A stretch of DNA of 64,000 nt from an uncultured Planctomycetales bacterium (GCA_964526305.1 CAZGKV010000002.1:9599-73598), one strand, 5' to 3'; positions 14,955 through 38,302 are shown, counted from the first letter of the stretch. Notes: generated by a model from the sequence alone, not told the origin. Made by a program: numbers and translations.

Positions 14955-15218
14955 ATGACGATCGAGAGTCGCCGAGCGGAGTGCTTGCGGCGGAAGGACA
15001 CCTTGGCCGACCTCATGGAGGAGGTCCGGCCTTATGTCGGGATGTCGCCGGAACGCAGGGACGAGCTGATCCAGCAGATCTCTCGGTGGGTCCTCCAGTT
15101 GTTTCTCGATCTCGGCAGCCGGCCTTGTTTGGCCACGCCGGACGCGCTGCCCGAATCCAGTCGGCGGATCTGGAGCCGACTGATGGAAGAACACCGGCGT
15201 GCCGGAAGCTCCCATTGA
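14955..15218 (+). CDS. small hypothetical protein (87 aa), candidate partner/antitoxin of the downstream nucleotidyltransferase
   Basis: ORF with 20-nt overlap into the next gene. No family recognised. Confidence 0.45.
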   Translation: MTIESRRAECLRRKDTLADLMEEVRPYVGMSPERRDELIQQISRWVLQLFLDLGSRPCLATPDALPESSRRIWSRLMEEHRRAGSSH

Positions 15219-15768
15219 TCTCGCCACGTTGGCCAGGCGCCTGGCCGACGCGCTGGAAGCGGCGGGAGTTCCCTATGCCATAGGCGGTGCGTTGGCCTAT
15301 GGACAGTGGGCGGTTCCCCGCGCCACGGCCGACGTCGACATTACGCTCTTTCTCGACGAACCGGAGTGGCCGAAGGCACTGGATCTTCTCCAGCGGGAGG
15401 GAGTGGAGGGGGACGGTCGGGTCGCCCTCACGGAGCTTCAGGACCGCGGTTCATGCAGATTGAAGGGGGGGGCGTTCTATGTCGATCTGTTCGTCCCGTC
15501 CATTCCCTTCTATTCCGCCGCAAGGAGTCGAATCGTCTTGCGTCCTCTCGTAGGTCGCCCCGCCGGCTTTCTCACCGCGGAAGATCTTTCCGTATTCAAG
15601 ATGCTCTTCTTTCGCCCGAAGGACTTGGTCGACATCCGATACATGCTCGCGGTGCAGGGGGGGGCATTCGATCGATTCTACGTGCGGCATTGGTTGGCCG
15701 AGATGGTCGGCGAGTCCGACGAGCGTGTCCTCCGTTGGGACGAACTATGCCGCGAGGTGCCTGCCTGA
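15199..15768 (+). CDS. Pol-beta superfamily nucleotidyltransferase (AbiEii/MenT/DUF1814-like)
   Basis: hG[GS]x9-13Dh[DE] NTase motif: YAIGGALAYGQWAVPRATADVDITLF. 189 aa. Overlaps the upstream small ORF and overlaps the hemE start by 22 nt. Confidence 0.6.
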   Translation: MPEAPIDLATLARRLADALEAAGVPYAIGGALAYGQWAVPRATADVDITLFLDEPEWPKALDLLQREGVEGDGRVALTELQDRGSCRLKGGAFYVDLFVPSIPFYSAARSRIVLRPLVGRPAGFLTAEDLSVFKMLFFRPKDLVDIRYMLAVQGGAFDRFYVRHWLAEMVGESDERVLRWDELCREVPA

Positions 15769-16787
15769 GCCCAGACGAATCGCGTCTGCTTCGCGCCGCT
15801 CGACGATTGCCGGTGGACCGAACCCCCGTCTGGTTCATGCGCCAGGCGGGCCGTTTCCTGCCGGAGTACCGCGACCTCCGCAAGCGCTACTCGATGCTCG
15901 AACTTTGTACGAACGCGGATCTTGCGGCGCAGGTCACGATGCTTCCGATCCGTCTTCTGCCGGGTCTCGATGCCGCCATCGTCTTCTCGGATCTCCTGCT
16001 GCCGCTTCAGCCGATGGGGCTCGAGATCCGGTTCGCTGCGTCCGAGGGGCCGCAGGTCCTGAATCCGATCGCCCACGAGTCCGATGTCGAGCGCCTGCGT
16101 CCCCTGGAACCCGAGCAGGATCTTCGCCCGGTTCTCGACGCCATTCGGATTCTTCGCCGCGAACTCCAGGTTCCGCTCATCGGTTTCGCGGGCGCGCCGT
16201 TCACCCTCGCGAGTTACGCCATCGAGGGCGGCTCGTCCCGCCATTACCTCAAGACGAAGGGCTTGATGACGAGCCATTCTCCCGTGTGGTCGAGACTCAT
16301 GACCAAGCTGGCGGAGGCTGCGCTTCGCCATCTTCGCGCGCAAATCGAGGCCGGGGCGCAGATGGTCCAGCTCTTCGACAGCTGGGTGGGGGCCTTGGGG
16401 CCCCGCGACTACGAGGAGTTCGTCCTTCCGTATTCGCGAATCGTCTTCGAAGGCCTTCGAGACACCGGTGCTCCCACCATTCACTTCGGGACCGGGACGG
16501 CCTCGCTTCTCGAACTCATGAAGCGGGCCGGTGGGGACGTGATCGGACTGGACTGGCGCGTGAATCTGGCCGAGGCATGGCTGCGCCTTGGAGAGGTCGC
16601 CGTGATGGGGAACCTCGACCCCGCGATGCTTCTGGCTCCCCGGGAGGCGCTCGTGAGTCGGGTGGATTCGATCTTGGATTCGGCGGGGAGGAGGGCCGGA
16701 CACATATTCAACCTGGGGCATGGCGTGCTCCCCGAGACGCCGGTGGAGAATCTCCTGGCCGTCCTTGAGCGGGTCCACTCGCGATGA
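15747..16787 (+). CDS. hemE: uroporphyrinogen decarboxylase
   Basis: DRTPVWFMRQAGRFLPEY signature. Full-length similarity pattern. Start at ATG 15747 rather than the track's 15306 extension, which reads through the previous gene. Confidence 0.9.
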   Translation: MPRGACLSPDESRLLRAARRLPVDRTPVWFMRQAGRFLPEYRDLRKRYSMLELCTNADLAAQVTMLPIRLLPGLDAAIVFSDLLLPLQPMGLEIRFAASEGPQVLNPIAHESDVERLRPLEPEQDLRPVLDAIRILRRELQVPLIGFAGAPFTLASYAIEGGSSRHYLKTKGLMTSHSPVWSRLMTKLAEAALRHLRAQIEAGAQMVQLFDSWVGALGPRDYEEFVLPYSRIVFEGLRDTGAPTIHFGTGTASLLELMKRAGGDVIGLDWRVNLAEAWLRLGEVAVMGNLDPAMLLAPREALVSRVDSILDSAGRRAGHIFNLGHGVLPETPVENLLAVLERVHSR

Positions 16788-17617
16788 AGACGGCGGTTCT
16801 TCTGATGGCGCATGGATCCCCGGACTCCCCGGACCAGATGGAGGAGTACCTCCGGCGGGTGATGGCCCCCCGCGTTCCGAAGCCGGAGTTCGTGGGGGAG
16901 ATGGCGGAGAGATACCGGAAGATCGGCGGCCGGTCACCCCTCCTGGAGATCACTCGCGCCCAGGCTCATGCGCTGGCATCGAGGATCGGCCTGCCGGTCT
17001 ACGTGGGGATGAGGCATTGGCATCCCCTCATCCGGGAGGCGGTGGAGGAAGTTCGGCGCGATGGGGCACGCAAGATCGTCGGACTCGCGCTCGCCCCCCA
17101 GTACTGCCCGGTCAGCGTCGGGGCGTATCACCGCGCCCTCATCGATTCGCGGGAGGATTTGGAGGTGGTGCTTGTCGGCAGTTGGGCGACCGAGCCCGGC
17201 CTCCTCGACTGCTGGGCAGCTCGGTTGCGACCGGGGGCGAACGTCCTGTTCACCGCGCACAGCGTCCCGGTCGATCAGGCGGGTCCATACCCCCAGGAGG
17301 TCCGGGAGACGATTCGCGGGATCCTGGACCGAGTCGAGGTGCGAGCCCATTTCGCCTGGCAGAGCCGGAGTCCCTCTCCGAATCCGTGGTTGGGACCGGA
17401 GATCCAGGAGATTCTCCCCTCCTTGAAGGGGCAAGAGGTGACGGTCGCCCCGATCGGTTTTGTCGCCGAACATGTGGAGACGCTCTACGACCTGGACATT
17501 CTGCACCGGGCGCAGGCGGAGCGGCTCGGGATTCGCTGGAAGCGGGTAGCGATGCCGAACGCCGATCCGATGCTGATCGAGGCGATGGCCTCGGCCTTGA
17601 AGTTTCATCTGAGCTGA
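16784..17617 (+). CDS. hemH: ferrochelatase
   Basis: ATGA overlap with hemE. MAHGSPDSPDQMEEYL, RHWHP, FTAHSVP, GFVAEHVETLYDLDI: ferrochelatase motifs. Confidence 0.9.
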   Translation: MKTAVLLMAHGSPDSPDQMEEYLRRVMAPRVPKPEFVGEMAERYRKIGGRSPLLEITRAQAHALASRIGLPVYVGMRHWHPLIREAVEEVRRDGARKIVGLALAPQYCPVSVGAYHRALIDSREDLEVVLVGSWATEPGLLDCWAARLRPGANVLFTAHSVPVDQAGPYPQEVRETIRGILDRVEVRAHFAWQSRSPSPNPWLGPEIQEILPSLKGQEVTVAPIGFVAEHVETLYDLDILHRAQAERLGIRWKRVAMPNADPMLIEAMASALKFHLS

Positions 17618-17721
17618 ACGACCCTCCATGGGCCTATTGACTCGCTCCGGTTCCGGCCGATATCATTGAAGGCGCTTTTTGCCATGCCCAAGACAACGAT
17701 GATAACAGAAACGAGAATAAG

Positions 17722-18414
17722 ATGCAGCTCTCCGTACGCGAAACGGCTCGTCTACTGAAGGTATCCGAAACTACCGTATATAGATGGATTCGCAAGGGGT
17801 CGATCCCGGCCAGCCAAATCAACGACCAAGTTCGGCTCAGCAGGGCTGAGCTGCTCGAATGGGCGTCCTCGCACAATATCCCCGTCTCCCCCGAGATGTT
17901 CCAGGAACCGGAAGGCGCTGACGGCCAAGTCAGTGGCTTGTTCCAGGCGCTGAAGGCGGGGGGAATCCTCTACGGAATCAAGGGAGCGGACAAACCCGCT
18001 GTCCTTCATGGGGTTGTCGCGGCCATCCCGTTTCCCGAGGATATGGACCGCCAGTTCCTTTGCCAAATTTTATTGGCACGGGAGGCACTGGGATCGACCG
18101 CCATCGGGAACGGAATCGCGATCCCACACGTCCGTCATCCGATCGTGATGCAACTGACGGAGCCGATGATTACCCTCTGCTTCCTGCAGCGGGCCATAGA
18201 TTTCGGTGCTCCGGACGGGAAGCCCGTGGACAAGCTATTCATGCTTTTCAGCCCGACGGTCAAACTGCATCTTCAACTTCTGTCCAAGCTCATTTTCCTA
18301 CTTCGAAGTCCGGAGTTCTGGGGCGCCTTGGTGCGAGCGGCGCCGGCTGAGGAGCTCCTATCCATCGTCCAGAGGACGGAGGGCTCGGTCCCGCGCACCG
18401 GCAAGGCCTCCTAG
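17722..18414 (+). CDS. fusion regulator: N-terminal MerR/excisionase-type HTH + C-terminal PTS EIIA(Ntr)/PtsN-like domain
   Basis: HTH: LSVRETARLLKVSETTVYRWIRKGSIPAS. EIIA type-2 domain with the phosphorylatable His context GNGIAIPHVRH. Stop 18414 lies 4 nt before the next gene. Confidence 0.8.
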   Translation: MQLSVRETARLLKVSETTVYRWIRKGSIPASQINDQVRLSRAELLEWASSHNIPVSPEMFQEPEGADGQVSGLFQALKAGGILYGIKGADKPAVLHGVVAAIPFPEDMDRQFLCQILLAREALGSTAIGNGIAIPHVRHPIVMQLTEPMITLCFLQRAIDFGAPDGKPVDKLFMLFSPTVKLHLQLLSKLIFLLRSPEFWGALVRAAPAEELLSIVQRTEGSVPRTGKAS

Positions 18415-18417
18415 GCC

Positions 18418-20415
18418 ATGCCCCTGAGCCTGGTTCTCCTGGCCGCCGGGGCGATGGCGTTCAGCGGCATCCCCGGGCTCCTCTTCCACTGGCGCTCAAG
18501 AATCGGCCAGTGGATTGCAATGGTCTTCGCAGTCGGCGCGGCCGGGGCCGGGCTCATGGGAGCGTTCGGAGGGATCTTCCAGGCTGAGGCGAGTCTCCGC
18601 GTGCCGTGGCCACTCCCTGGCGCAGAACTGAACGTCCGACTCGATGCCTTGAGCGGTTTTTTCCTCGTCCCCATCTTCCTCATCGGAGGCCTGGGCTCAA
18701 TCTATAGCTTGGGGTATTGGAGCCAACAGGATCGGCCTCGGACCGGCAGGCAGGTGCGGTTCTTCTACGGAGTCCTCGTCGCGGGGATGGCGGTCCTCGT
18801 CGTTGCGAAGAACGGCATTCTCTTCCTCTTCGGTTGGGAGGCAATGGCGCTTGCCTCCTTCTTCCTCATTACCGCCGAATCCCACGATCCCGAGGTGCGC
18901 AAAGCGGGATGGCTCTACTTGATGCTGACCCATGTCGGGACGCTTACTCTCTTCGCGGTGTTCGCGCTGCTGCGGAAGGCGACTGGGTCCTTCCTGCTGA
19001 GACCACTCGGGGTCGAAGAGGCCGGACTCGGGACGTTGATGCTCCTGTTCCTCCTCATGCTCATTGGATTCGGCATGAAGGCGGGCTTGATGCCTCTCCA
19101 TGTCTGGCTTCCGAGCGCGCACGCCAGCGCCCCGAGCCACGTTTCCGCCCTCATGTCCGGGGTGGTGATCAAGATGGGCATCTACGGATTGGTTCGATTC
19201 CTGGGGATGATGCCGCAGCCGCCCGTGAGCTGGGGGGCGATCCTCCTGCTCCTGGGGACGATCAGTGGAGTCGTCGGCGTCTTGTTCGCGATCGGACAGC
19301 ACGACCTCAAGCGTCTCTTGGCCTATCACAGCGTCGAGAATGTCGGCATCATCGTCATGGGGTTGGGTGTCGCGATGCTCGGTCGGTCGTTGGGACGACC
19401 GGATTGGGTAATCCTGGGGTTGGCCGGTTGTCTCCTCCATGTTTGGAACCATGGGTTGTTCAAGGCCCTCCTCTTCCTGGGGGCGGGCTCGGTCATTCAC
19501 GCAGTTCATACTCGTGAAATCGATCGGATGGGCGGCTTGGCCAAGTCGATGCCTCGAACCGCACTCCTGTTCTTGATCGGAGCGGTTGCGATTTGCGGGT
19601 TACCTCCCCTCAACGGGTTCGTGAGCGAACTGCTCGTGTACATGGGATTGTTCCGAACGCTGGGCATCGGCGCGGGGCCGTCCTGGGTCCAGGCGGCGCC
19701 GGCCGCTCCCGCATTGGCTCTGATCGGCGCTCTGGCCGTGGCGTGTTTCGTCAAGGTCTTCGGTGCGGTTTTCCTCGGGAGCGCTCGAAGCCACGATGCG
19801 GAGGGCGCCCGCGAGTCTTCCTGGCCTATGGTCGGAGCCATGGGTGTTCTGGCCGTCTGCTGCGTCGCCATCGGGGTGGCGCCCGTCCTCGTGGGGCCTG
19901 TCCTCGACCGAGCCGCTGCGGCATGGACGAATCAGCCGTTACCCGGCGTCGGCTCGCTCGCCCCGTTCCGGCCGCTGACCTTTCTCGGCGTTGGACTCCT
20001 CGGAGCCATCGCGGCGGGGTGGGCGCTTCTCTCTCGTGTCCGCACTTCGGGCGGAGTGGGAACCTGGGATTGCGGATATGCGGCACCGACCGCGAGGATC
20101 CAATACACGTCCTCCTCCTTCGCCGACACGTTGGTGGGCCTGTTCCGCTGGGTGCTGCGTCCGCGCGTCCATCGTCCTCATCTCGAGGGAATCTTCCCCG
20201 GGGGCACCCGATTCGCGAGTCGCGTGGACGACACGGTTCTCGACGGCCTACTGGCGCCGGCGGCGCGCGCGGCCGAGAAGGCCGTCGGGCGTGTGAAGGT
20301 ATTCCAACAGGGGAGTTCGCAGCGATACATCCTGTACGTTCTCGTCGCGCTCGTTGGGCTGCTGCTTTGGTCTTTCCCGCTGGAGCGCCTGTTCCTCAAG
20401 CTTTTTTCGAGGTGA
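18418..20415 (+). CDS. NuoL/MrpA/HyfB-like antiporter-type membrane subunit of hydrogenase-4/Ehr-like complex
   Basis: 665 aa, about 16 TM helices. WLPSAHASAPSHVSALMSGVVIK and HSVENVGIIV motifs typical of NuoL/HyfB proton-translocating subunits. Confidence 0.85.
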   Translation: MPLSLVLLAAGAMAFSGIPGLLFHWRSRIGQWIAMVFAVGAAGAGLMGAFGGIFQAEASLRVPWPLPGAELNVRLDALSGFFLVPIFLIGGLGSIYSLGYWSQQDRPRTGRQVRFFYGVLVAGMAVLVVAKNGILFLFGWEAMALASFFLITAESHDPEVRKAGWLYLMLTHVGTLTLFAVFALLRKATGSFLLRPLGVEEAGLGTLMLLFLLMLIGFGMKAGLMPLHVWLPSAHASAPSHVSALMSGVVIKMGIYGLVRFLGMMPQPPVSWGAILLLLGTISGVVGVLFAIGQHDLKRLLAYHSVENVGIIVMGLGVAMLGRSLGRPDWVILGLAGCLLHVWNHGLFKALLFLGAGSVIHAVHTREIDRMGGLAKSMPRTALLFLIGAVAICGLPPLNGFVSELLVYMGLFRTLGIGAGPSWVQAAPAAPALALIGALAVACFVKVFGAVFLGSARSHDAEGARESSWPMVGAMGVLAVCCVAIGVAPVLVGPVLDRAAAAWTNQPLPGVGSLAPFRPLTFLGVGLLGAIAAGWALLSRVRTSGGVGTWDCGYAAPTARIQYTSSSFADTLVGLFRWVLRPRVHRPHLEGIFPGGTRFASRVDDTVLDGLLAPAARAAEKAVGRVKVFQQGSSQRYILYVLVALVGLLLWSFPLERLFLKLFSR

Positions 20416-20419
20416 GAGG

Positions 20420-21328
20420 GTGGTCGAGAGGATCGTTCACGTCGTCTTGTTCTTGACGATGCCTCCGCTCTTGCTCGGAGTCATCCACAAGACGAAAGCT
20501 CTCTTCGCCGGTCGGGTCGGGCCTCCCGTTCTTCAGCCGTACTTCGATCTCATCAAGTTGATGCGGAAGGGCATGGTGTTGAGCTCGACCACCACCTGGA
20601 TCTTCCGCGCGAGCCCGGTGGTCACGGTGGCGACCGTCCTCCTGGCGGGCCTCCTGATTCCACTCGGTCGATTCGACGCTCCGATCGTATTCGCCGGGGA
20701 TCTGATTCTCTTCGCGTACCTGTTCGCCCTCGCCCGATTCTTCACCACCGCGGCGGCGCTGGACACCGGATCTCCCTTCGAGGGGATGGGAGCGGCGCGG
20801 GAAGTCACCTTCGCCTGCTTCTCGGAACCCGCGCTCTTCTTCGCGCTTCTTTCGCTCGCCAGACTCAGCGGCTCGGTGAGTCTCACGGCCATGCTCCACT
20901 CGGCGCAGTTCGGCGGCGCAGGGCTCTCGAGCGCGGCCCTCCTTCTCGTCGCCGTCGGGCTCTTCCTCTTCCTTCTCTCCGAGAATTGTCGGATACCGGT
21001 GGACGATCCGAACACGCACCTCGAGCTCACGATGATCCACGAGGTCATGGTGCTCGATCACGGCGGGCCCTTGTTCGGGATGATCCTCTACGGGGCGTCG
21101 CTGAAGCTCTTCGTGCTGAGCGCGCTCTTTGTCCACGTGGTGGCCCCCATTCGGACGACTCGTCCTTGGCTCGACACGGGGATCTTCGTCGCCCTCATGA
21201 TCGGCGTGGCCGTGCTGGTGGGAGTCGTCGAGTCGGTGATGGCCCGTCTCCGGATGCGGCACGTGCCGACGCTCCTCATCGCGTCGTGCCTTCTGTGCGG
21301 CTTCGGATTTCTCCTCCTGGTGAGATGA
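20420..21328 (+). CDS. NuoH/HycD/HyfC-like membrane subunit
   Basis: GTG start 5 nt after the previous stop. Multi-TM protein with the NuoH-family region (DPNTHLELTMIHEVMVLDHGGPLFG). Confidence 0.8.
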   Translation: MVERIVHVVLFLTMPPLLLGVIHKTKALFAGRVGPPVLQPYFDLIKLMRKGMVLSSTTTWIFRASPVVTVATVLLAGLLIPLGRFDAPIVFAGDLILFAYLFALARFFTTAAALDTGSPFEGMGAAREVTFACFSEPALFFALLSLARLSGSVSLTAMLHSAQFGGAGLSSAALLLVAVGLFLFLLSENCRIPVDDPNTHLELTMIHEVMVLDHGGPLFGMILYGASLKLFVLSALFVHVVAPIRTTRPWLDTGIFVALMIGVAVLVGVVESVMARLRMRHVPTLLIASCLLCGFGFLLLVR

Positions 21329-21329
21329 C

Positions 21330-21974
21330 ATGCTGACGACGGCGGCCGACGCGATCCTCATCGTGGTTCTCCTGATGAATCTCTTCATGCTGGGGACGAG
21401 TCGGATCAACTCGGTGATCCGGATCGTCGCGGCCCAGGGGGTGGCGCTCGGGGTGATGGCCCTGATCCAGCACGGGGAATTGGGATTGCGGACCGTCCTC
21501 CTCGCCGGTGCGACGATCGCCGTCAAGGGGGCCGTCATTCCCTGGATGCTGACCCGCGCGATGCGTCAGGTGCAGATCAAAAGGGAGGTGGAGCCGCTCG
21601 TCGGCTTGGTACCTTCGATGCTCTTGGGGGCCGCCGGAACGGGTCTGGCCGTGCTCTTCGCGGCGCAGCTTCCCATCGTTCGGGGACACGGCTCGTCGCT
21701 GATCGTGCCCGCTTCGCTCGCAACCGTATTGACCGGATTCGTTCTTCTGACCACGCGGATCAAGGCCATCAGCCAGGTCCTGGGATACCTCGCGCTCGAG
21801 AACGGAATCTTCACCTTCGGTCTCCTGCTCCTCGAGGCGATGCCGTTCTTGGTGGAGATCGGGGCGTTGCTGGATCTCTTCGTGGGCGTCTTCGTGATCA
21901 GCATCATCATCCACCACATCAATCGGGAGTTTGCGACCTTGGATACGCGGAAGCTCTCCACGCTCAAGGACTGA
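21330..21974 (+). CDS. HyfE-like (hydrogenase-4 component E) small membrane subunit
   Basis: 214 aa with 6-7 TM helices, directly abutting the previous gene. Size, hydropathy and position match HyfE of hyf operons. Confidence 0.7.
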   Translation: MLTTAADAILIVVLLMNLFMLGTSRINSVIRIVAAQGVALGVMALIQHGELGLRTVLLAGATIAVKGAVIPWMLTRAMRQVQIKREVEPLVGLVPSMLLGAAGTGLAVLFAAQLPIVRGHGSSLIVPASLATVLTGFVLLTTRIKAISQVLGYLALENGIFTFGLLLLEAMPFLVEIGALLDLFVGVFVISIIIHHINREFATLDTRKLSTLKD

Positions 21975-21978
21975 CGCC

Positions 21979-23412
21979 ATGGCTCTCGCGATGGTTCTCG
22001 CCCCGATGGCGCTGGCGCTCGTCGCCTGGGCCGTTCCCAGCGACCGCCTTCGAGTCTGGGCGCTTCCGCTCGGAGGCGTCGCCCAGATTGCGGCCACGGG
22101 GATCAGTTTGTGGCGTCCCGGCCTTCCCACCGGCGGAAGTTGGCTCGTCCTCGACGCCCCCGGCCGCGTCGTTCTCGTCACGATCAGCGCGCTCTTCTTC
22201 TTGTGCAGCCTGTACGGGGTCGGCTACTTGCGCTACCGGACCGAGAGGCCCAACCGCGTGTTCTGCAGCTGCCTCCTGCTCCTGCTGGGGATCATGAATC
22301 TGGTCGTCTGGTCCCATCATTTGGGGTTGATGTGGGTGGGGATCGAGGCGACGGCCCTGGCTACGGCGCCGCTCCTCTATTTCAATCGGACCCCGCAATC
22401 CATCGAGGCGACGTGGAAGTATCTCCTCGTCGGCTCGGTCGGAATCGCCCTGGCCCTCTTCGGTTCCTACTTCCTGGCGTATTCCTCGCTGCACGCCGGC
22501 CATGCGTCGTCCCTCATGTTCGACGATCTCCTTCGAATCGCTCCGCATCTCTCCAAGCCGTGGCTGCACGTCGCGTTCGTTCTGCTCCTGGTGGGATACG
22601 GGACGAAGATGGGAATCGCGCCGCTCCACACCTGGAAACCCGACGCGTACGGCGAGGCTCCGGGACTCGTGGGCGCGATCTTGGCCGGAGGGGTCACGAA
22701 CTGCGCGTTCCTCTCGCTCCTGCGCGTCTATCGCATCTGCGTCGCGGCGGGGGAGGGACCGTTCGCGGGGCGCATGATGATCTTCCTGGGACTCCTCTCG
22801 ATGGCGGTGGCGGGCGCGTTCATGATCGGGCAACGCGATCTGAAGCGGATGCTCGCCTACTCGAGCGTCGAGCACATGGGGATCCTCACCTTGGGCGTCG
22901 GGATCGGCGGCGGGGCTCTCTTCGGTGCGATGCTCCATCTCGTCAACAACGGAATGACGAAGGGGATCACGTTTCTGGCCGCGGCGAACATCCATCGGGC
23001 CTTCGGGAGTAAGGCCACCGGAGCCGTAGCCGGAGCCATGCGGCGCCTCCCCGTTTCGGGGACCCTCTTCCTGGCCGGATTCCTTGCGATCACCGGGTCG
23101 CCTCCTTTCGGACCGTTCGTGAGCCAGTTCGCGATCTTCAATGGAGCCGTCGCCGGCGGACGCGCCTGGATCGCGTTTCTCTTTCTGGCCTTCCTCGCCG
23201 TGGTGTTCCTGGGGATGGGAACGACGGTGCTGCGGGCGGTGCAGGGACGGCCCTCCGCAGCGGCCATGGCATCGCCATACCGGGATGGAGTCCTCACCAC
23301 GGTTCCCCTGCTCGTTTTCCTCGGGGTCGTTCTGATGTTGGGGGTGTACATTCCCGAACCGTTGCGGCGAATGCTGACGGAGGCGGTGGCCTTCGTGGAG
23401 GGCCGGCCATGA
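21979..23412 (+). CDS. NuoN/NuoM/HyfF-like antiporter-type membrane subunit
   Basis: ATG 21979 starts 5 nt after HyfE stop. WKYLLVGSVGIALALFG, PLHTWKPDAYGEAP, YSSVEHMGILTLGVG: NuoN/HyfF motifs. Confidence 0.85.
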   Translation: MALAMVLAPMALALVAWAVPSDRLRVWALPLGGVAQIAATGISLWRPGLPTGGSWLVLDAPGRVVLVTISALFFLCSLYGVGYLRYRTERPNRVFCSCLLLLLGIMNLVVWSHHLGLMWVGIEATALATAPLLYFNRTPQSIEATWKYLLVGSVGIALALFGSYFLAYSSLHAGHASSLMFDDLLRIAPHLSKPWLHVAFVLLLVGYGTKMGIAPLHTWKPDAYGEAPGLVGAILAGGVTNCAFLSLLRVYRICVAAGEGPFAGRMMIFLGLLSMAVAGAFMIGQRDLKRMLAYSSVEHMGILTLGVGIGGGALFGAMLHLVNNGMTKGITFLAAANIHRAFGSKATGAVAGAMRRLPVSGTLFLAGFLAITGSPPFGPFVSQFAIFNGAVAGGRAWIAFLFLAFLAVVFLGMGTTVLRAVQGRPSAAAMASPYRDGVLTTVPLLVFLGVVLMLGVYIPEPLRRMLTEAVAFVEGRP

Positions 23413-24908
23413 ATCGGTTTCGGCCGATGTTCCCCGGCAAGGCCGTGGAATTGGACGAGGTGCCTCGACTGGGCCTCGCCGAATTTCAGCAGTCGATCGT
23501 CGAGGGGGTGAGCGCGGGGGCGAGGATCTCGGCGCTGTTCGGCGCGGGTTCCCAGGTCGTCACCCTCTACGGCGTCCTGGCGGACGATCCGGAGAGCCGA
23601 CTCCTGGTGGCAAGGAGCGAGGTGGAGGGAGATTCGTTCGAATCCATTACGCCTCGATGCCCCCAAGCGCATCTTTTCGAGCGGGAGATTGCGGAACAAT
23701 TCGGACTGATGCCCCGAGGCCATCCCTGGCTGAAGCCCGTTCGGTTTCATCCTTCCTACCGGCCGGGACACGCCGTCTGGCCGGATCCGACGATCGGCGT
23801 CACCGACTTTTACCGGGTCGAAGGCGAGGAGATCCACGAGGTGGGAGTCGGCCCCGTCCACGCGGGAGTGATCGAGCCGGGGCACTTTCGGTTCCAATGT
23901 CACGGCGAGGAAGTCTTCCACCTGGAGATTTCCCTGGGATACCAGCACCGGGGAGTGGAGCCGGCCCTGGTGGGGGGACCGAACCGCAGAACGATCCACC
24001 TCATGGAAACGACGGCGGGCGACACCACCGTGGGGCACGCGACGGCCTACTGCGAGGTCATGGAAGCCCTGACCCGCTGCCAGAAATCGGCCCGCGCGCA
24101 GGTCCTGAGGGGGATCGCCCTCGAGCTGGAGCGGCTGGCGAATCACGTGGGGGATCTGGGGGCGTTGGCGAACGACGTCGGGTTTCTCCCGACGGCCTCC
24201 TACTGCGGTCGCATTCGGGGCGACTTCCTCAACATGACCGCACTTCTGTGCGGGAGCCGCTTCGGACGGGGATTCCTTCGGCCGGGCGGCGTAGGGTTCG
24301 ACGTGGACGATGTGCGAGTCGGGACGCTCCTGGAGCGGCTGGCCGCGGCGCAGAAGGACACGAGGGTGGCGGTCGATCTGTTGTGGGCGAGCCCCTCGGT
24401 GATGGCACGGTTCGAGGAGACCGGTGCCATACCAAAAGAGGTATGTACACAGTTGGGACTCGTCGGGCCCGCCGCACGGGCGTGCGGCGTCGAATTGGAC
24501 GTGCGTCGCGATCAGCCGTCGGGAATCTACCGGTTCAGTCACATCCCGGTTGCGAGTTGGCCGAGCGGAGATGTGTTCGCGCGGGCGTACGTGCGGTGGC
24601 TCGAGATCGAGCGATCGATCCTCTTCATCCGGGAGCAGCTCAAGGCGCTGCCGTCAGGATCGGTGGGGGTGGATGCCGGGAGTCCGCAGCCCGACCGCAT
24701 CGCGGTCTCGTTGGTGGAGGGATGGCGGGGGGAAATCTGCCATGTTGCGCTGACCGATGCGGAGGGCCGGTTCTTGCGGTACAAGATCGTCGATCCCTCC
24801 TTCCACAACTGGACCGGCCTGGCGTACGCGCTACGAAATCAACAGATCTCCGATTTTCCGCTGTGCAACAAGAGCTTTAATCTCTCGTACTGCGGGCACG
24901 ACCTATGA
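23409..24908 (+). CDS. [NiFe]-hydrogenase large-subunit homolog (fused NuoC-NuoD/HycE-like) that apparently lacks the N-terminal Ni-binding CxxC
   Basis: ATGA overlap. GPVHAGVIEPGHFRF...HRG...TVGHATAY aligns to the HycE GPLHVTSDEPGHFRL...RVCGICGFAHSTAY region (HycE recalled from memory), but with AGDTTVG in place of CGICGFA. C-terminal ISDFPLC...SYCGHD retains one Cys of the DPCxxC L2 motif with aberrant spacing. Confidence 0.8.
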   Translation: MNRFRPMFPGKAVELDEVPRLGLAEFQQSIVEGVSAGARISALFGAGSQVVTLYGVLADDPESRLLVARSEVEGDSFESITPRCPQAHLFEREIAEQFGLMPRGHPWLKPVRFHPSYRPGHAVWPDPTIGVTDFYRVEGEEIHEVGVGPVHAGVIEPGHFRFQCHGEEVFHLEISLGYQHRGVEPALVGGPNRRTIHLMETTAGDTTVGHATAYCEVMEALTRCQKSARAQVLRGIALELERLANHVGDLGALANDVGFLPTASYCGRIRGDFLNMTALLCGSRFGRGFLRPGGVGFDVDDVRVGTLLERLAAAQKDTRVAVDLLWASPSVMARFEETGAIPKEVCTQLGLVGPAARACGVELDVRRDQPSGIYRFSHIPVASWPSGDVFARAYVRWLEIERSILFIREQLKALPSGSVGVDAGSPQPDRIAVSLVEGWRGEICHVALTDAEGRFLRYKIVDPSFHNWTGLAYALRNQQISDFPLCNKSFNLSYCGHDL

Positions 24909-25660
24909 TCGATGTCTTTCTCGCGCGGCTTCAGCAGAAGCACCGGACGATTCCGTTTCCCGGTCACGAGCCGACGCTTCCCGATCTGTTCCGAGGGAGG
25001 CCGGAGATCGACGGCTCGAAGTGTCCCGAGGGGTGTCGCGATTGTGTGGAGGCTTGTCCGACCGGCGCGGTGAAGCTGGAAGGAGGAGTCTCCGTGGATC
25101 TGGGGCGCTGCCTCTTCTGCGCGGAGTGTTCGCGGGCATGTCCGCAGGGGGCGATCACCCATACGCGGGATTATCGGATGGCGACCCGCGCACGCGAGGA
25201 CTTGGTCCTGTCTGGAAAGGCGATGGAGCTGGCGAAGGCCCTCGACGGGAAGATGCGATCGCTCTTCGGGCGATCCCTCAAGCTGCGTCAGGTCAGCGCC
25301 GCAGGTTGCAACGCCTGCGAGGCGGACGTCAACGTCCTGAACACCGTCGTCTTCGACCTCGGGCGATTCGGAATCCAGATCGTCGCTTCGCCACGCCATG
25401 CGGACGGCCTTCTCATCACGGGTCCGGTATCGCGGAACATGAAGCTCGCGCTCGAAAAAACTTACGCCGCGGTCCCGCCTCCCAAGCTCGTGATCGCGGT
25501 GGGGGCATGCGCGATCAGCGGCGGGCCCTTCGTCGATTCCCCCGAGGTCTGCAATGGAGCGGGCGGAATCGTGCCGGTGGATCTCTACATTCCGGGATGC
25601 CCTCCTCATCCGATCACCATTCTCGACGGACTCCTCCGGTTGTTGGGGCGCATCTCATGA
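24905..25660 (+). CDS. fusion of 2x[4Fe-4S] ferredoxin (NuoI/HycF-like) and NuoB/HycG-like hydrogenase small subunit
   Basis: ATGA overlap. CPEGCRDCVEACP and CLFCAECSRACP ferredoxin motifs. Then NuoB-type cluster ligands GCNACE, GACAISGGP, PGCPPHP. Confidence 0.8.
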   Translation: MIDVFLARLQQKHRTIPFPGHEPTLPDLFRGRPEIDGSKCPEGCRDCVEACPTGAVKLEGGVSVDLGRCLFCAECSRACPQGAITHTRDYRMATRAREDLVLSGKAMELAKALDGKMRSLFGRSLKLRQVSAAGCNACEADVNVLNTVVFDLGRFGIQIVASPRHADGLLITGPVSRNMKLALEKTYAAVPPPKLVIAVGACAISGGPFVDSPEVCNGAGGIVPVDLYIPGCPPHPITILDGLLRLLGRIS

Positions 25661-25705
25661 GTCGAGAACTGGCGCCGGTCGCGAGATTCTGGTAGCGTCC
25701 CGCCG

Positions 25706-26017
25706 ATGTGGCCGTGGATCATCCTGGCGGCCGTATGGGCTGCCGCGGGGTATCAGGCGTGGCACGCGTATCGCCAGGCGCGGATGGCGGAGCCCGCGAA
25801 TCCGCTCGCGGCGATCGCGGCGCGGGTGAAGGTGGGGCTCGGTTTCCTCTGGGCGATCCTCATGCTCTTGGCCGGAGCGATCGCGTCGTTGACGGTGGCC
25901 TCGGCCGAGAAGAATCGCGTCGCCTCCTGGGCGGCCGGGGGGACGATGGCGCTGGCGGTCTTGGGCGGGATGGGAGCGTGGAAGTGGTTCTGGAGGCGTC
26001 GACGAACGGCGTCGTGA
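25706..26017 (+). CDS. small membrane protein, hypothetical (3 TM)
   Basis: 103 aa hydrophobic ORF between the Ehr-like operon and the ion-channel gene. Stop 26017 lies 8 nt before the channel ATG. Confidence 0.4.
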   Translation: MWPWIILAAVWAAAGYQAWHAYRQARMAEPANPLAAIAARVKVGLGFLWAILMLLAGAIASLTVASAEKNRVASWAAGGTMALAVLGGMGAWKWFWRRRRTAS

Positions 26018-26025
26018 CACCGGGA

Positions 26026-26787
26026 ATGGAACTCAAGAACGTCGTAGAATCGAAGTGGTTCCGCACTACGGTGGCGCTGCTCATCGGCCTGAATGCGCTG
26101 GTGGTAGGGGCCGAGACGTATCCCCAAGTTACAAGCCGCTTCGGGAAATGGCTTGAGGCGACCGATCGCATCATTCTCGTCCTCTTCGCGGTGGAACTGG
26201 TGCTTCGGTTCATCGCCACGCCGCCTCGGTATCGGTTTTTCCTCAACGGATGGAATCTCTTCGACATCGTGATCGTGAGTGCCGGATTCGTGCCGGCAAC
26301 CGAATACCTCTCGGTCCTGCGGTTGCTGCGGATCATCCGAATCCTCCGCGCCGTGACGGTGATGCCCCATCTGCAGAAACTGGTCCTGGCGCTCTTGAGG
26401 AGTCTCCCTTCTCTGGGGCACATCGCCTTCCTACTCGGCCTTCTCTTCTTCGCGTTCGGGGCGACGGGTACCTATCTCTTCCGGGACGTGGATCCGAACA
26501 ACTTCGGCTCCCTTCACCGATCGATGCTGACGCTCTTCGGCGTCGTCACGCTGGAGGGATGGGTCAGCGTGATGGAGGGGCTGCTGAAGCACAAACCATG
26601 GGCGTGGCTGTACTTCGTCAGCTTCATCCTCCTCGGAACGTTCATCTCCATGAACCTGTTCGTCGGCGTCCTCGTGAACAACCTCCAATCCGCCGAGGCG
26701 GAAGACAAGGAGGCTCACGACAAGGCCGTACGCGATCGCCTGGCCCGGATCGAAGAGAAACTCGACGCCCTCCTCCCTCCCCGATGA
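26026..26787 (+). CDS. voltage-gated cation channel (NaChBac/NavAb-like single-domain ion transport protein)
   Basis: S4 voltage sensor with Arg every third residue (LSVLRLLRIIRILRAV). Pore/selectivity region FGVVTLEGWVSVM (TLESW-like). 6-TM architecture. ATG 26026 chosen rather than the upstream in-frame 25708. Confidence 0.8.
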   Translation: MELKNVVESKWFRTTVALLIGLNALVVGAETYPQVTSRFGKWLEATDRIILVLFAVELVLRFIATPPRYRFFLNGWNLFDIVIVSAGFVPATEYLSVLRLLRIIRILRAVTVMPHLQKLVLALLRSLPSLGHIAFLLGLLFFAFGATGTYLFRDVDPNNFGSLHRSMLTLFGVVTLEGWVSVMEGLLKHKPWAWLYFVSFILLGTFISMNLFVGVLVNNLQSAEAEDKEAHDKAVRDRLARIEEKLDALLPPR

Positions 26788-26852
26788 TATAGAAATAGCC
26801 AGGCTTCTTTTATATCATGATATAAAAGAAGCCTGGCTATTTCTATATCATC
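26783..26852. repeat. perfect 70-bp AT-rich palindrome (35-bp arms, no spacer)
   Basis: GATGATATAGAAATAGCCAGGCTTCTTTTATATCAT|GATATAAAAGAAGCCTGGCTATTTCTATATCATC is exactly self-reverse-complementary. It starts inside the channel stop codon (TGA 26785-26787). About 30% GC in a ~67% GC context. No T-tract follows. Confidence 0.9.
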
Positions 26853-26927
26853 GAGACAAAGGGGGGCGCCGACTCCATGCGGCCGGGTGTTGACGGCGAG
26901 GCCTCAACCCGCTATGAATCTCCCTTG

Positions 26928-27653
26928 ATGGACGCGGTACCGATGATCGAGGCCCAGGGCCTCTGCAAGTATTACGGCTCCTTTGCCGCACTTCGGGACG
27001 TCAGCTTCTCGGTTCCGCAGGGCCAGGTCGCCGCCTTCTTGGGGCCAAACGGGGCGGGGAAGTCCACCACGATGAAAATCCTGACGGGCTTTCTTGCACC
27101 CAGCTCCGGCACCGCCCGCATCGCGGGTTGCGACGTATCGACCCAACGACTCGCGGCCGCGAAGCACCTCGGATACCTGCCCGAGAACGGGCCTCTCTAC
27201 CTCGACATGACTCCCATCGCCTTGCTCCAGTTCTTTGGGAAGGCGCGCGGGATGGGCGGCGCGCTCCTGCAGCAGCGGATCGGAGAGCTCGCGGGACGAT
27301 GCGGCATCGAACCGGTTCTCTACAAGCCGATATTCAAACTCTCCAAAGGATACCGCCAACGCGTAGGAATGGCCCAAGTCCTCCTCCACGATCCGAGCGT
27401 CCTGATCATGGACGAACCGACGTCCGGCCTCGACCCCAATCAGATCCGAGACGTGCGCGCCACCATCCGAGAACTTGGCAAAACCAAGACGATTCTGCTT
27501 TCGACCCATATCCTTCAGGAGGTCCCCGCGATGGCGGACCGCGTGATCTTCATCCACGACGGCCGGATCGTCTTCGACGGGACGCCGAAGGAGATGTGCG
27601 CGGAGAGCGAATCCTTGGAAGTATTCTTCCACCAGAAAACGGGGGCCCTCTAG
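26928..27653 (+). CDS. ABC transporter ATP-binding protein (GldA-like)
   Basis: Walker A GPNGAGKST, signature LSKGYRQRV, Walker B LIMDEPTSGLD, H-loop. Start at ATG 26928 (the track's 26877 ATG lies just after the palindrome and is equally possible). Confidence 0.85.
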   Translation: MDAVPMIEAQGLCKYYGSFAALRDVSFSVPQGQVAAFLGPNGAGKSTTMKILTGFLAPSSGTARIAGCDVSTQRLAAAKHLGYLPENGPLYLDMTPIALLQFFGKARGMGGALLQQRIGELAGRCGIEPVLYKPIFKLSKGYRQRVGMAQVLLHDPSVLIMDEPTSGLDPNQIRDVRATIRELGKTKTILLSTHILQEVPAMADRVIFIHDGRIVFDGTPKEMCAESESLEVFFHQKTGAL

Positions 27654-27655
27654 CG

Positions 27656-30646: not shown

Positions 30647-32202
30647 ACGAGTGGGTCAAGACCGGAATCTTCGGAGGAGTCGCCGCGATCGCCGTCCTGG
30701 CCGCGGTCTTCACGCAACCTCGGCGAAAGGACCCCGAGATCTTCAAGGAGGAGGGAAAACCCTTCTTCCCGAACCTGACCGATTCGCTCCAGGTCGCGTC
30801 GATGGAGGTGGTGGAGTACGACGAACTCCGTAGCCGTCCGCGGCCCTTCAAGGTCGAGGTGAAGAACGGGGCCTGGGTGCTCCCGACGCATCACGACCAT
30901 CCGGCGGACGCCGCGGAGCGGTTGAAGAAGACGGTCGCGCAAGTGGTGGACCTGCAGCGGGACTCTCTCCGGAGCGATCGGGCGAGCGATCACGAGAGCC
31001 TGGGCGTCGTCGATCCGCTGGACGATCAGGCGAAGGCGACTCGCGGACGAGGAAAGCGCATCACGCTTCGGGATCCCGAAGGCAGCGTGCTCGCCGATTT
31101 CATTCTCGGCAACGACGTCCCCGGCGGCCGCGAAATGAAGTACGTCCGCCTGCCCGGCCAAAAGTGGGTCTACGGAGTGAAGACGAAGGCGGAGTTCTCG
31201 GCGAAATTCTCCGATTGGATCGAGACGGACTTCCTGAAGGTGGACACCTACGACATCCGCCGCTTGCGCTTCGACTACTACCGAATCGAGGAGCGCATGG
31301 TCGATGCCGTGATGCGCACCGAGACGGGAGAGCAGGTGATCGTGAAGCTCCCGGTCCCGCGCCTTCATCGCGCCGACACCTTCCTCGTGGAAAAGGGAGA
31401 AGACTACCGCTGGAAAATCGACGGCAAGGAAGCCGAGGACGCCAAGGTCACCGAAGTCACCGGCGCTCTGGACAAGCTGTCGATCGTGAGCGTGCGCCCG
31501 AAGCCCGCCGGGATCGCCGCGGATCTGACGTTGGGTCGCGACGTGGTCGTGAGCGGAGAGGCGATCTCGTCGCTCTTGGGGAAGGGATACTTCCTTCGCG
31601 TTCCGAACGGCACGAGCATCGTTTCCATGGAGGCGCTTCAGCTGCTCTACGCCAAGGGAGCCTCGAAGATCTCGGTCGGTCAACTGGTCAAGGACCTCAA
31701 GAAGTACGAGGTCATCGAGAAGAACGAAGGGGAGGACCTGACGCTCGAGGTGGCCTCGAAAGCGGGCCAGATCGATCTCATCACCGAGAAGGGAGTCGTC
31801 TACACCCTGCGGTTCGGCGACATCGCTACCGGCATCGAAGAGGCGGGAGGAGAGAAGCCTGCGGGCGAGCACCGATGGATTCTGGTTACGGTCAAGTTCG
31901 ATCCTCAGTGGATTCCGGCTCCGAAGCCGGATCCCCGTCCCGAACCGACGGACGGCGATCCGCTCCTGGACTGGGACTCGCAGCGGTCGGCCTTCGAAAA
32001 GCGACAGAAGGAAGACGAGGAGTGGGAGAAAAAGTCCCAGGAGACGATGAAGCGGCGCAAGGAGGAGTGGGACCAGAAGGTGAAGGACGGCGAGAAGGCG
32101 GCGAAGGAGCTGAATCGCCGCTTCGCGAATTGGTATTACGTCATTTCCGGCGAGAATTTCGACAAGCTGCAGGCCTCGCGCGAGAAGCTCCAGAAGAAGT
32201 AG
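30631..32202 (+). CDS. DUF4340-like protein associated with GldG-type ABC systems; N-terminal TM anchor, C-terminal charged coiled coil
   Basis: 16-nt overlap with the previous gene. N-terminal TM GIFGGVAAIAVLAAVF. Family assignment by gene context and memory of the DUF4340 pattern. Lys/Glu-rich tail. Confidence 0.6.
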   Translation: MGKTVNEWVKTGIFGGVAAIAVLAAVFTQPRRKDPEIFKEEGKPFFPNLTDSLQVASMEVVEYDELRSRPRPFKVEVKNGAWVLPTHHDHPADAAERLKKTVAQVVDLQRDSLRSDRASDHESLGVVDPLDDQAKATRGRGKRITLRDPEGSVLADFILGNDVPGGREMKYVRLPGQKWVYGVKTKAEFSAKFSDWIETDFLKVDTYDIRRLRFDYYRIEERMVDAVMRTETGEQVIVKLPVPRLHRADTFLVEKGEDYRWKIDGKEAEDAKVTEVTGALDKLSIVSVRPKPAGIAADLTLGRDVVVSGEAISSLLGKGYFLRVPNGTSIVSMEALQLLYAKGASKISVGQLVKDLKKYEVIEKNEGEDLTLEVASKAGQIDLITEKGVVYTLRFGDIATGIEEAGGEKPAGEHRWILVTVKFDPQWIPAPKPDPRPEPTDGDPLLDWDSQRSAFEKRQKEDEEWEKKSQETMKRRKEEWDQKVKDGEKAAKELNRRFANWYYVISGENFDKLQASREKLQKK

Positions 32203-37261: not shown

Positions 37262-38302
37262 CTACCGGACGATCTCCAACTCCGGCTGCTCCGACGTCAC
37301 CGCTTCGCCGACAATCCGCGCGTCGCTTACCCCGCGCTCCTGGAGTTTCCGGAGGAGCGCGTCGGCATCCTTGGCCCGCATGGCGATGAGCAGTCCGCCC
37401 GAGGTTTGCGGATCCCAGAACACGGCCTTTTCTTCCTCCGACAGTCCGCCGGCGAATCGAATGGAAGGGCTCGCCATCTTGGCGTTCGACCCCGTGACTC
37501 CTGTCCGGACCCCCTGAGCGATGAGATCGAGCGTCAGCGGGAAACGCGGTATCGCTTCCGCGAAGAACCGGAGAGAAACCCGACTGGCGCGGGCCATGCC
37601 GAGCGCGTGGCCGGAGAGTCCGAATCCGGTGATATCGGTCGCCCCCCGACACTCGAACTCCATCATCGTTTCGCAGGCCACCTTGTTCAGCGTCGCCATG
37701 GCGCGGACGATCGGTTCGAACGCCGCGGGTTCGATGGCTCCGCGCTTCGCCGCCGTGATGTGGACGCCGGTGCCGATGGGTTTCGTCAGGAGGAGTTTGT
37801 CGCCGGCCTTCGCTCCGGAATTCGGGGTATAGCGCCGGGGATGGACAAGGCCGTTCACCGAGAGTCCGTACTTGATTTCCTCGTCCTTGACGGTGTGGCC
37901 TCCGACCAGGAGCGCTCCCGCTTCGTGGATCTTGTCCAGACCGCCCTTGAGGATCTTGCCCAGCGTTTCGATTTCGACGCCCTCCGCCGGGAAGTTGCAC
38001 AGATTCAGAGCGGTGATCGGGCGGCCGCCCATGGCGTATACGTCGCTCAGGGAATTCGCCGCCGCCACCGCGCCGTACCAGTAGGGATCGTCCGTAATCG
38101 GCGTGATGTAGTCGGCGGTGATCACCAGCGCGGTCTCGTCCGACAGCCGATAGATGGCGGCGTCGTCCATGGTGTCGATGCCGACGAGGAGGTTCGCGTC
38201 CTTCCGGGGCTCGATCTGCCGGAACAGGCCCTGTAAGTCCAACGGACTCAGTTTGGCCGCTCAACCCCCGCTTCGAGCGAAGTCGCGGATATCGCACGGC
38301 AT
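37262..38302 (-). CDS. selD: selenide, water dikinase (selenophosphate synthetase) containing in-frame UGA selenocysteine
   Basis: The track ORF (37262..38242) starts at an internal Met. Extending upstream on the minus strand gives ATG(38302) MPCDIRDFARSGG-U(TGA, plus 38261-38263)-AAKLSPLDLQGLFRQ..., matching the SelD N-terminal SHGAG[C/U]GCKISP motif. The rest matches SelD (VGIDTMDDAAIYRL, GGHTVKD, TDITGFGLSGH). Confidence 0.85.

Follow-up and report, generated by a model that had tools for sequence, protein, structure and literature searches.

A helix-turn-helix-EIIA fusion gene heads the Ehr operon of a planctomycete and accompanies Ehr genes in about 20 bacterial lineages

We analyzed a stretch of 64 kb (64,000 nucleotides, nt) from an uncultured Planctomycetales bacterium (GCA_964526305.1, CAZGKV010000002.1:9599-73598), which as a whole is referred to below as the window and in which positions are counted from the first letter. 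Between 17722 and 25660 it carries seven tightly packed open reading frames (ORFs), all on the + strand, in which a gene for a helix-turn-helix (HTH)-EIIA fusion protein, g1, is followed by six genes, g2 to g7, for the subunits of a membrane-bound complex that we assign to the energy-converting-hydrogenase-related (Ehr) group. Their protein families were assigned with Pfam and NCBIfam profiles:

17722-18414, + strand: g1, HTH_17 domain (residues 3-50), disordered linker (~61-72) and PtsN-like EIIA domain (~73-220) with His136
18418-20415, + strand: g2, EhrA, HyfB/NuoL-like antiporter-type membrane subunit (NF005086 hydrogenase-4 subunit B, E 1e-175; Proton_antipo_M)
20420-21328, + strand: g3, EhrB, NuoH/HyfC-like membrane subunit (PF00146 NADHdh, E 2e-32, full length)
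21330-21974, + strand: g4, EhrC, HyfE-like membrane subunit (NF008556 hydrogenase-4 membrane subunit, E 1e-17, full length)
21979-23412, + strand: g5, EhrD, HyfF/MbhH/NuoN-like antiporter-type subunit (HyfF models, E 6e-95)
23409-24908, + strand: g6, EhrL, NuoC+NuoD/HycE-like large subunit (Complex1_30kDa and Complex1_49kDa)
24905-25660, + strand: g7, EhrS, fusion of a 2x[4Fe-4S] HycF/MbhN/NuoI-like part (~1-110) and a HycG/MbhJ/NuoB-like Oxidored_q6 part (~117-250)

A seven-gene, tightly linked operon at this position had been proposed in a first-pass annotation of the window, and the gene call of the Joint Genome Institute (JGI) on the same metagenomic contig gives identical boundaries, including the GTG start codon of g3. 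The junctions measure +4 to -4 nt: gaps of 3, 4, 1 and 4 nt separate g1-g2, g2-g3, g3-g4 and g4-g5, respectively, and g5-g6 and g6-g7 overlap by 4 nt each. The profiles also agree with the subunit order that had been read from the sequence (HyfB-, HyfC-, HyfE-, HyfF-, HycE/NuoCD-like and HycF+HycG), and all six group 4-type subunit kinds (HyfB-, NuoH-, HyfE-, HyfF-, large and small) lie within one co-directional cluster. EhrA is single-copy in the window, and many relatives have two EhrA paralogs. The best solved match of g5 is MbhH (6cfw_H); in our reading of this alignment it retains three conserved residues typical of antiporter-like subunits, the helix-5 Glu and the Lys of helices 7 and 12, and has Asn in place of the helix-8 Lys. 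Both halves of g7 have solved counterparts: the N-terminal one matches 6cfw_N and 7z0s_F (E 2e-12), the C-terminal one 6cfw_J and 7z0s_G (E 1e-30). Its cluster cysteines (GCNAC, GAC, GCPP) are retained, such that the NuoB/HycG-type cluster and both ferredoxin-type motifs are intact.

The complex had been described as hydrogenase-related, and while the Hyf-like character of its subunits stands, it is not a hydrogenase. Among solved proteins, g6 is most closely related to HycE of Escherichia coli (7z0s_E, E 1e-45), and in the alignment ETTAGDTTVGH of g6 lies opposite RVCGICGFAH of HycE and, at the C-terminus, NLSYCGHDL lies opposite DPCYSCTDR. All four Ni-Fe ligand Cys positions are thereby replaced and both CxxC motifs lost, in g6 as in 51 relatives, and g6 ends without a cleavable extension. 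Because the large subunit lacks the Ni-Fe cysteines, we class the complex from its sequence as Ehr (EhrA, B, C, D, L and S) rather than as a hydrogenase. The residues that took the place of the ligands are highly conserved in an alignment of 52 EhrL sequences (the window and the 51 relatives): the motifs E-T-x-AGD-(T/S)-T-(I/V)-(G/A)-H and DFPLCNKSFNLSYCGHDL are nearly invariant in EhrL of the related genomic loci with which the window was compared (numbered L001-L169; here L001-L165), and they include a His and two Cys that are mostly conserved. Such a motif set suggests that the former Ni-Fe positions now form the site of a different cofactor or substrate, and since the altered pocket is so strongly conserved, it argues against Ehr being a mere relic. 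A quinone site of the complex I type is likewise not apparent: in our reading of the alignment with 2fug_4, Ile155 and Gly204 of g6 stand at the positions of the complex I quinone ligands, such that the ligands, which we take to be His38 and Tyr87 of Nqo4 in Thermus thermophilus numbering, are not present.

The gene content of the window points the same way. Among its scanned ORFs there are no genes for NuoE, NuoF or NuoG, and none for hyp proteins, a maturation endopeptidase, formate dehydrogenase, HycB/HyfA or proteins of the phosphotransferase system (PTS), in agreement with the first-pass annotation as regards formate dehydrogenase, HycB/HyfA and hyp; nor do hyp, formate dehydrogenase or HycB/HyfA genes recur beside related clusters, as judged by the clustering of flanking ORFs described below. 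Thus, the ordinary Hyf or formate hydrogenlyase (FHL) operon with hyp genes nearby, with which the first-pass annotation had contrasted its own proposal, is not what lies here. One candidate for HypE, an AIRS-family gene at 37262-38242 on the - strand, was rejected, as it is selD (TIGR00476, E 4e-97); its presence indicates that the organism probably makes selenoproteins or selenouridine.

Ehr complexes are widespread among environmental bacteria, for example in Planctomycetota, Verrucomicrobiota, Acidobacteriota, Gemmatimonadota, Desulfuromonadales and comammox Nitrospira, and in evolutionary schemes they are placed between the [NiFe]-hydrogenases and complex I. The function of Ehr has been described as unknown (PMC6349859, PMC10284858, PMC7894505), and the Geobacter complex was treated as non-functional in one 2026 paper (PMC13194489), while Ehr proteins were found to be abundant in Geobacter sulfurreducens grown on formate (PMC7894505).

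The gene that leads the operon, g1, encodes a protein of 230 amino acids in which HTH_17 (PF12728, E 6e-15) and PTS_EIIA_2 (PF00359, E 1e-22) are the only Pfam domains detected, with no PRD or EIIB-like domain. The excisionase-family profile TIGR01764 matches the HTH above its cutoff, and the best NCBIfam match of the EIIA domain, PtsN (TIGR01419), is below its cutoff. The fusion of an HTH to a PtsN-like EIIA domain with the motif GIAIPHVRH, as first annotated, is borne out by these matches; the motif contains His136 and aligns with GIAIPH of E. coli PtsN (1a6j). When compared with PDB, a profile of the g1 family matched PtsN structures (4gqx, 1a6j, 3urr) at E ~4e-20 to 7e-20 and mannitol-type EIIA at 1e-6. 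The AlphaFold (AF2) model of g1, with a predicted local distance difference test (pLDDT) score of 84, has two domains and a disordered linker at 61-72, and Foldseek gave template modeling (TM) scores, normalized to the target, of ~0.8 to 3urr and 2a0j and of ~0.7 to 1a6j and 4gqx. No solved protein combines HTH_17-type and EIIA domains as g1 does. Arg120, Glu121, Thr126, Pro135, His136 and His183 are 100% conserved among 94 g1 homologs of 34-58% identity, and the conservation of the HTH equals that of the EIIA domain, the window's own HTH being a diverged form (SETTVYRW...VRLSR). The EIIA domain is thus PtsN-type with invariant phosphotransfer residues, His136 being the putative phosphate acceptor.

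Database relatives of g1 number in the thousands. The closest named relatives belong to Tepidisphaerales/Planctomycetota. The best 120 matches of g1 all have the HTH_17 + EIIA architecture and are all annotated solely as 'PTS sugar transporter subunit IIA' or 'nitrogen regulatory IIA component'. No g1 homolog without an HTH was found among the readable loci or the top 120 database matches. Two apparent cases are artefacts, the locus being N-masked in L074 and frameshifted in L078, and L080 encodes an unrelated EIIA protein.

Homologs of g1 were sought in one genome per species, yielding 596 loci, of which the best 80 were analyzed, with Ehr genes located by tblastn using the window's proteins as queries. 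These best 80 loci come from ~20 lineages, namely Planctomycetota (several orders), Verrucomicrobiota, Lentisphaerota, Myxococcota, Acidobacteriota, Gemmatimonadota, Spirochaetota, Desulfobacterota/Desulfuromonadales, Elusimicrobia, Latescibacterota, Methylomirabilota, Zixibacteria, Omnitrophota, Goldiibacteriota, Fermentibacteria, Desantisbacteria, Limnocylindrales, Bdellovibrionales, Cytophagia and one metagenome-assembled genome labelled Alcaligenaceae. Whether such fusions recur upstream of similar operons had been raised by the first-pass annotation, and they do: an EhrA-like ORF starts within 600 nt after g1 in all 67 loci that have a full-length g1 and at least 1.5 kb of downstream DNA. 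The estimated gap between g1 and EhrA has a median of 4 nt, with the two genes overlapping in 31 of the 67 loci. All six Ehr genes follow g1 in the same order in 43 of the 44 loci with at least 9.5 kb downstream. The linkage of g1 to Ehr genes is therefore almost obligate across ~20 lineages.

The one exception, L061, has g1 and a lone EhrA followed by unrelated genes. We rejected it as a counter-example to the linkage, as it mirrors the split in G. sulfurreducens, where ehrA-2 (GSU0734) lies apart from ehrA-1, B, C, D, L and S (GSU0739 onward; PMC7894505 supplement), and its likeliest reading is that DNA was inserted into the operon. In L169, from a 3.7 Mb Desulfuromonadales genome, the order of g1 and Ehr genes is intact apart from a toxin-antitoxin insertion between ehrC and ehrD (16439-16980), which consists of a gene for a PemK-type toxin and a small ORF upstream of it; L061 and G. 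sulfurreducens have other insertions, by which the operon is split behind the first ehrA.

We also clustered all ORFs lying up to 5 kb downstream of g7 (57 loci) and those upstream of g1 (67 loci). Outside the module no gene family is conserved, none recurring in more than 4 of 57 downstream and 7 of 67 upstream loci, and the same clustering revealed no recurrent gene for an electron-donor or electron-acceptor partner. As no further flanking gene is conserved, the conserved module is exactly g1 + Ehr, set into varied contexts. A second, independent set of loci was fetched from metagenomes through EhrL, with the presence of g1 judged where the upstream DNA sufficed. This EhrL-seeded set includes Ehr operons without g1, one of which is preceded by a gene for a SulP-family transporter with a STAS domain (L163, 2407-4572); L089 has two extra antiporter-like genes.

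The regions upstream of g1 offer a candidate for the DNA site of its HTH. Across 75 loci they contain a sigma-70-like TTGACA(T), often followed by GGACA, and, after a -10-like hexamer, a direct repeat TGTCCA-N4-TGTCCA. The looser pattern TGTCY-N5-7-TGTCY occurs in 20 of the 75 regions, compared with 0.25% of 150-nt background windows from the same loci. With at least 10 of 12 matches, TGTCCA-N4-TGTCCA is found in 26 of the 44 loci with the canonical HTH (SEK[ST][IV]YRW), always with a spacing of N4 and mostly at -49 from the ATG, where it abuts the -10 of the g1 promoter. At least two half-sites are present in 38 of these 44 loci and in 4 of the 31 loci with another HTH, against a background of 0.30 half-sites per 120 nt. 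The association was replicated in the EhrL-seeded set: the site is present at -47 to -63 in all six canonical-HTH loci and in 1 of 13 others, this sole match (L150) being off-position at -146. In some Planctomycetota, including the cultured Fontivita pretiosa (CP191258.1, L168), the repeat is reversed and lies over the -35 region, and because of this opposite orientation the repeat is more readily understood as a DNA site than as an RNA element. A promoter-proximal repeat that co-varies with the HTH supports the idea that g1 acts as a DNA-binding autoregulator.

In diverged clades, other repeats stand upstream of g1. L064 (Gemmatimonadota, with a diverged HTH) has three tandem 15-nt direct repeats, CGCCGTTTGGCGTCT, at ~9900-10000, and L052 and L055 have repeated GTTGCG-type motifs; these may be lineage-specific operators.

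The window itself was searched for promoter-like and terminator-like sites over 15000-27000, and the following features flank the seven genes:

17637-17666, + strand: sigma-70-type promoter TTGACT-18 nt-TATCAT, the best promoter-like match (10/12) in the searched range, directly upstream of g1
17677-17683, + strand: TTTTGCC box, candidate clade-specific operator, invariant in the window, L166, L084 and L167
25706-26017, + strand: small hydrophobic ORF of 103 amino acids, tentative eighth gene, JGI-called, 45 nt after g7
25984-26787 (start 25984 or 26026), + strand: BacNav-type voltage-gated cation channel, tentative last gene (Ion_trans, E 7e-51)
26795-26840: hairpin, a palindrome with a 20-bp stem and T-rich tails, bidirectional terminator, the longest stem by far in the searched range

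In an alignment of the window with its three closest relatives (L166, L084 and L167, whose g1 is 66-68% identical and in all of which g1 follows hemH), only the promoter hexamers, the start codon and TTTTGCC are conserved, the -35 TTGA and the -10 TAnnAT being kept in all four sequences. The box lies ~10 nt past the -10, the position that the TGTCCA repeats take in other lineages, and with low confidence we regard it as a putative operator specific to this clade. No Rfam family matched anywhere in the window at gathering thresholds, so it holds no known riboswitch or leader. In the window, g1 is directly preceded by the heme synthesis genes hemE and hemH (uroporphyrinogen decarboxylase and ferrochelatase; 15306-17617), and hemH also directly precedes it in L084 (8107-9941, with hemE also present), L166 (431-1261) and L167 (75-908). 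The gap between hemH and g1 is merely ~60-100 nt, and heme synthesis genes and Ehr module are syntenic in the window's clade.

At the other end, there is no terminator-like site between g7 and the small ORF or the channel gene, the hairpin at 26795-26840 being the first after g7. The transcription unit of the window thus probably runs on to this hairpin and includes the small membrane ORF and the channel gene, which adds two genes to the seven of the first-pass annotation. The small ORF has no Pfam family and was not found in other loci. The channel has a single Ion_trans domain with six transmembrane segments, an S4 segment LRLLRIIRILR with an Arg at every third residue and the pore filter TLEGW, to be compared with what we take to be the TLESW-like filter of BacNav channels (NaChBac/NavAb-type); by these features it is BacNav-like. 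As it has no tblastn match in the 160 related loci searched, the channel gene is lineage-specific.

Directly after the terminator, genes for an ABC ATPase, for a large ABC-2 permease that is continuous with ABC_transp_aux/DUF7088 in a fusion protein, and for a DUF4340 protein (26877-32202) form a GldA/F/G-like export system. Farther away are two genes for eukaryote-type Ser/Thr protein kinases (1394-4762, where the kinase is fused to a long TPR array, and 49459-51240) and an 887-codon ORF on the - strand (46658-49321) with coding-like G+C content at third codon positions but no Pfam family.

Comparison with known systems helps to delimit what is particular to this operon. MBS provides an earlier example of a complex that derives from a hydrogenase and reduces a substrate other than protons. 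Pyrococcus Mbh and Mbx (MBS) (6cfw, 6u8y) resemble Ehr in joining Mrp-antiporter modules to hydrogenase-type peripheral arms, and the best solved matches of the window's subunits include MbhH, MbhJ, MbhL and MbhN; they differ by a subunit set with more Mrp subunits, and Mbh keeps Ni-Fe. We know of no EIIA-type regulator for Mbh or Mbx. The E. coli hyf and hyc operons are regulated by a sigma-54 activator (HyfR/FhlA). E. coli FHL (7z0s) provides the closest solved large and small subunits (HycE E 1e-45, HycG E 2e-30, HycF E 2e-12), and the window's membrane subunits are HyfB-, C-, E- and F-like, as in hydrogenase 4. The window differs from these E. coli systems in having no Ni-Fe ligands, no genes for formate dehydrogenase H, HycB/HyfA, hyp proteins or a maturation protease, HycF- and HycG-like modules that are fused, and an HTH-EIIA fusion as regulator. 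A close counterpart is Ehr of G. sulfurreducens, which has the same subunit types and a large subunit without Ni-Fe Cys (PMC7894505, PMC6349859, PMC10284858). It has two EhrA, whereas the window has one EhrA and then, after EhrS, the small membrane ORF and the BacNav channel. The Ehr operons of the Desulfuromonadales relatives L061 and L169 also begin with a g1 homolog, as in the window.

The regulator, too, has partial counterparts. PtsN is a stand-alone protein of ~160 amino acids, usually encoded in the rpoN region, that works through protein-protein contacts. The EIIA domain of g1 belongs to the same fold and family (1a6j; Burkholderia 4gqx and 3urr; Neisseria 2a0j), with GIAIPH and the second His kept, but it is joined to an HTH, and the gene for it opens a respiratory-type operon. 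In Firmicutes, the regulators MtlR, LicR and ManR carry a C-terminal EIIA(Mtl/Fru)-type domain within a DNA-binding protein whose activity is set by PTS phosphorylation; they are large, with a DeoR/Mga-type HTH, two PRD and an EIIB-like domain, and control sugar operons. In contrast, g1 has HTH_17 and a PtsN-type EIIA only, and a bioenergetic complex as its putative target.

Taken together, we consider the chances slightly better than even that the Ehr operon is headed by a dedicated one-component regulator, g1, with an autoregulating HTH and an EIIA domain that receives input via His136. Under this reading, in which the DNA binding, the direction of regulation, the phosphorylation and its donor, and the substrate and ion of Ehr are inferred steps, Ehr would be a membrane-bound, iron-sulfur, antiporter-module enzyme that arose from group 4 [NiFe]-hydrogenases with the loss of Ni-Fe binding. 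The excisionase/MerR-like HTH of g1 would bind short repeats abutting or overlapping the -10/+1 of its own sigma-70 promoter, in most lineages TGTCCA-N4-TGTCCA, with half-sites one helical turn apart, and in the window's clade a diverged box around TTTTGCC. Binding would autoregulate the operon, and this position of the sites makes repression the simplest mode. The EIIA domain would take the signal, most likely as phosphorylation of His136 by an NPr/HPr-type protein, which would report phosphoenolpyruvate (PEP)/pyruvate and nitrogen status and alter DNA binding. Ehr itself might be an ion translocator driven by ferredoxin or another low-potential donor. Mrp and NaChBac-type channels take part in Na+ cycling in alkaliphilic Bacillus, and the Na+ channel in the window's transcription unit is a hint of Na+ cycling by Ehr; together with the small membrane protein it would fit a role of Ehr in a Na+/H+ cycle.

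Several observations weigh against this reading. No PTS genes (EI, NPr/HPr, HprK) lie in the window or recur beside the g1 + Ehr module. The association between the canonical HTH and the half-sites (Fisher p 1e-10) is uncorrected for phylogeny, the TGTCCA repeat is absent upstream of the window's own g1, and the TTTTGCC box is a single site resting on four related sequences. Among the EhrL-seeded loci with enough upstream DNA, 19 have g1 and ~8 do not (~8/27, roughly 30%), so that the linkage is one-sided and Ehr does not depend on g1; these g1-less operons have unrelated genes upstream and no TGTCCA site on the coding strand upstream of EhrA. Finally, overlapping g1 stop and EhrA start codons are unusual for a low-copy transcription factor and would also fit a stoichiometric partner.

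It is tempting to conclude from the lack of PTS partner genes in the window and in the neighborhoods that g1, while still a DNA-binding autoregulator of Ehr, stands outside any phosphorelay and uses its EIIA-fold domain to sense a metabolite or a protein partner directly. The same fold is matched in SLC4 anion exchangers, proteins without a phosphotransfer function, by their cytoplasmic regulatory domains, and several g1-carrying lineages are generally regarded as poor in classical sugar PTS. However, Arg120, His136, His183 and their GxGxAxPH context are invariant in the 94 homologs down to 34% identity, as would be expected if phosphotransfer is kept, and the domain is far nearer to PtsN (E ~1e-20) than to other EIIA (E 1e-6); we therefore regard direct sensing as unlikely, though a serious contender. 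Dephospho-PtsN binds TrkA or KdpD, and PtsN controls ion-transport systems via such protein contacts. By this model g1 could mainly be a protein partner that gates or assembles Ehr, with the HTH being secondary or serving autoregulation only. The spacing of g1 and EhrA, which resembles that of translationally coupled genes (median gap 4 nt, 31/67 overlapping), is compatible with this, as is the fact that g1 stays beside an EhrA even where the operon is split (L061), with ehrA-2 (GSU0734) of G. sulfurreducens likewise lying apart from GSU0739 onward. A partner role of this kind has to contend with an HTH conserved like the EIIA domain, a promoter-proximal repeat that co-varies with it, the failure to find an HTH-less homolog (two apparent cases being artefacts) and the existence of g1-less Ehr operons, and it seems to us somewhat less probable still than direct sensing.

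The last explanation, an ordinary Hyf/FHL-type [NiFe]-hydrogenase operon or its decaying relic with g1 as an unrelated neighbor, could appeal to public annotations, in which g6-type genes are called 'Ni,Fe-hydrogenase III large subunit' or 'NADH-quinone oxidoreductase subunit C', and to the treatment of the Geobacter complex as non-functional (PMC13194489). It is already contradicted by the sequence, in which all four Ni-Fe Cys positions are replaced, and by the lack of hyp, formate dehydrogenase and HyfA genes among the scanned ORFs of the window. Neither decay nor chance proximity would sit well with replacement motifs and iron-sulfur cysteines that are highly conserved across phyla, with gene order and g1 linkage kept in ~20 lineages, or with the abundance of Ehr proteins in formate-grown G. 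sulfurreducens (PMC7894505), and we give this explanation hardly any weight.

Much of what is assembled here is already known: Ehr, EIIA domains in PRD-type regulators and PtsN have all been described, and the present operon is a further member of Ehr. What is new, in the sense of being absent from the literature searched, which did not include the Marreiros 2013 Ehr survey, is a minimal HTH-PtsN fusion dedicated to a bioenergetic complex, its broad phyletic range and its candidate operator. In that literature, no paper was found in which EIIA/PtsN or an HTH regulator is connected with Ehr, in line with the first-pass annotation, which knew of no description of such a coupling. There was also no mention of GSU0733 or GSU0738, or of an HTH-EIIA gene as part of the Geobacter ehr cluster.

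More broadly, and tentatively, since we put its probability a little short of even, we speculate that HTH_17-EIIA(Ntr) fusions form a widespread, hitherto undescribed family of one-component regulators that turn PTS(Ntr)-type phosphorylation directly into promoter occupancy and are dedicated to Ehr operons in ~20 lineages, and that Ehr is a functional and regulated enzyme, not a hydrogenase, that translocates ions and has a new conserved site (AGDTT...H / CNKSFNLSYCGHDL) where Ni-Fe used to be. Public annotations such as 'PTS sugar transporter subunit IIA', 'NADH-quinone oxidoreductase subunit C' and 'Ni,Fe-hydrogenase III large subunit' are misleading for these genes. If the proposal is true, the reach of the nitrogen PTS would be widened from the protein-protein control of K+ transport to the direct transcriptional control of a respiratory-type ion pump. 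Recent papers describe Ehr as having an unknown function (PMC10284858) or as non-functional (PMC13194489). A conserved regulator with a recognizable input domain and a predictable operator makes it testable when and for what purpose Ehr is produced, and tractable or cultured hosts exist, among them Fontivita pretiosa and Geobacter relatives. Thus, g1 and its operator would, if our reading holds, provide the first experimental handle on the function of Ehr.

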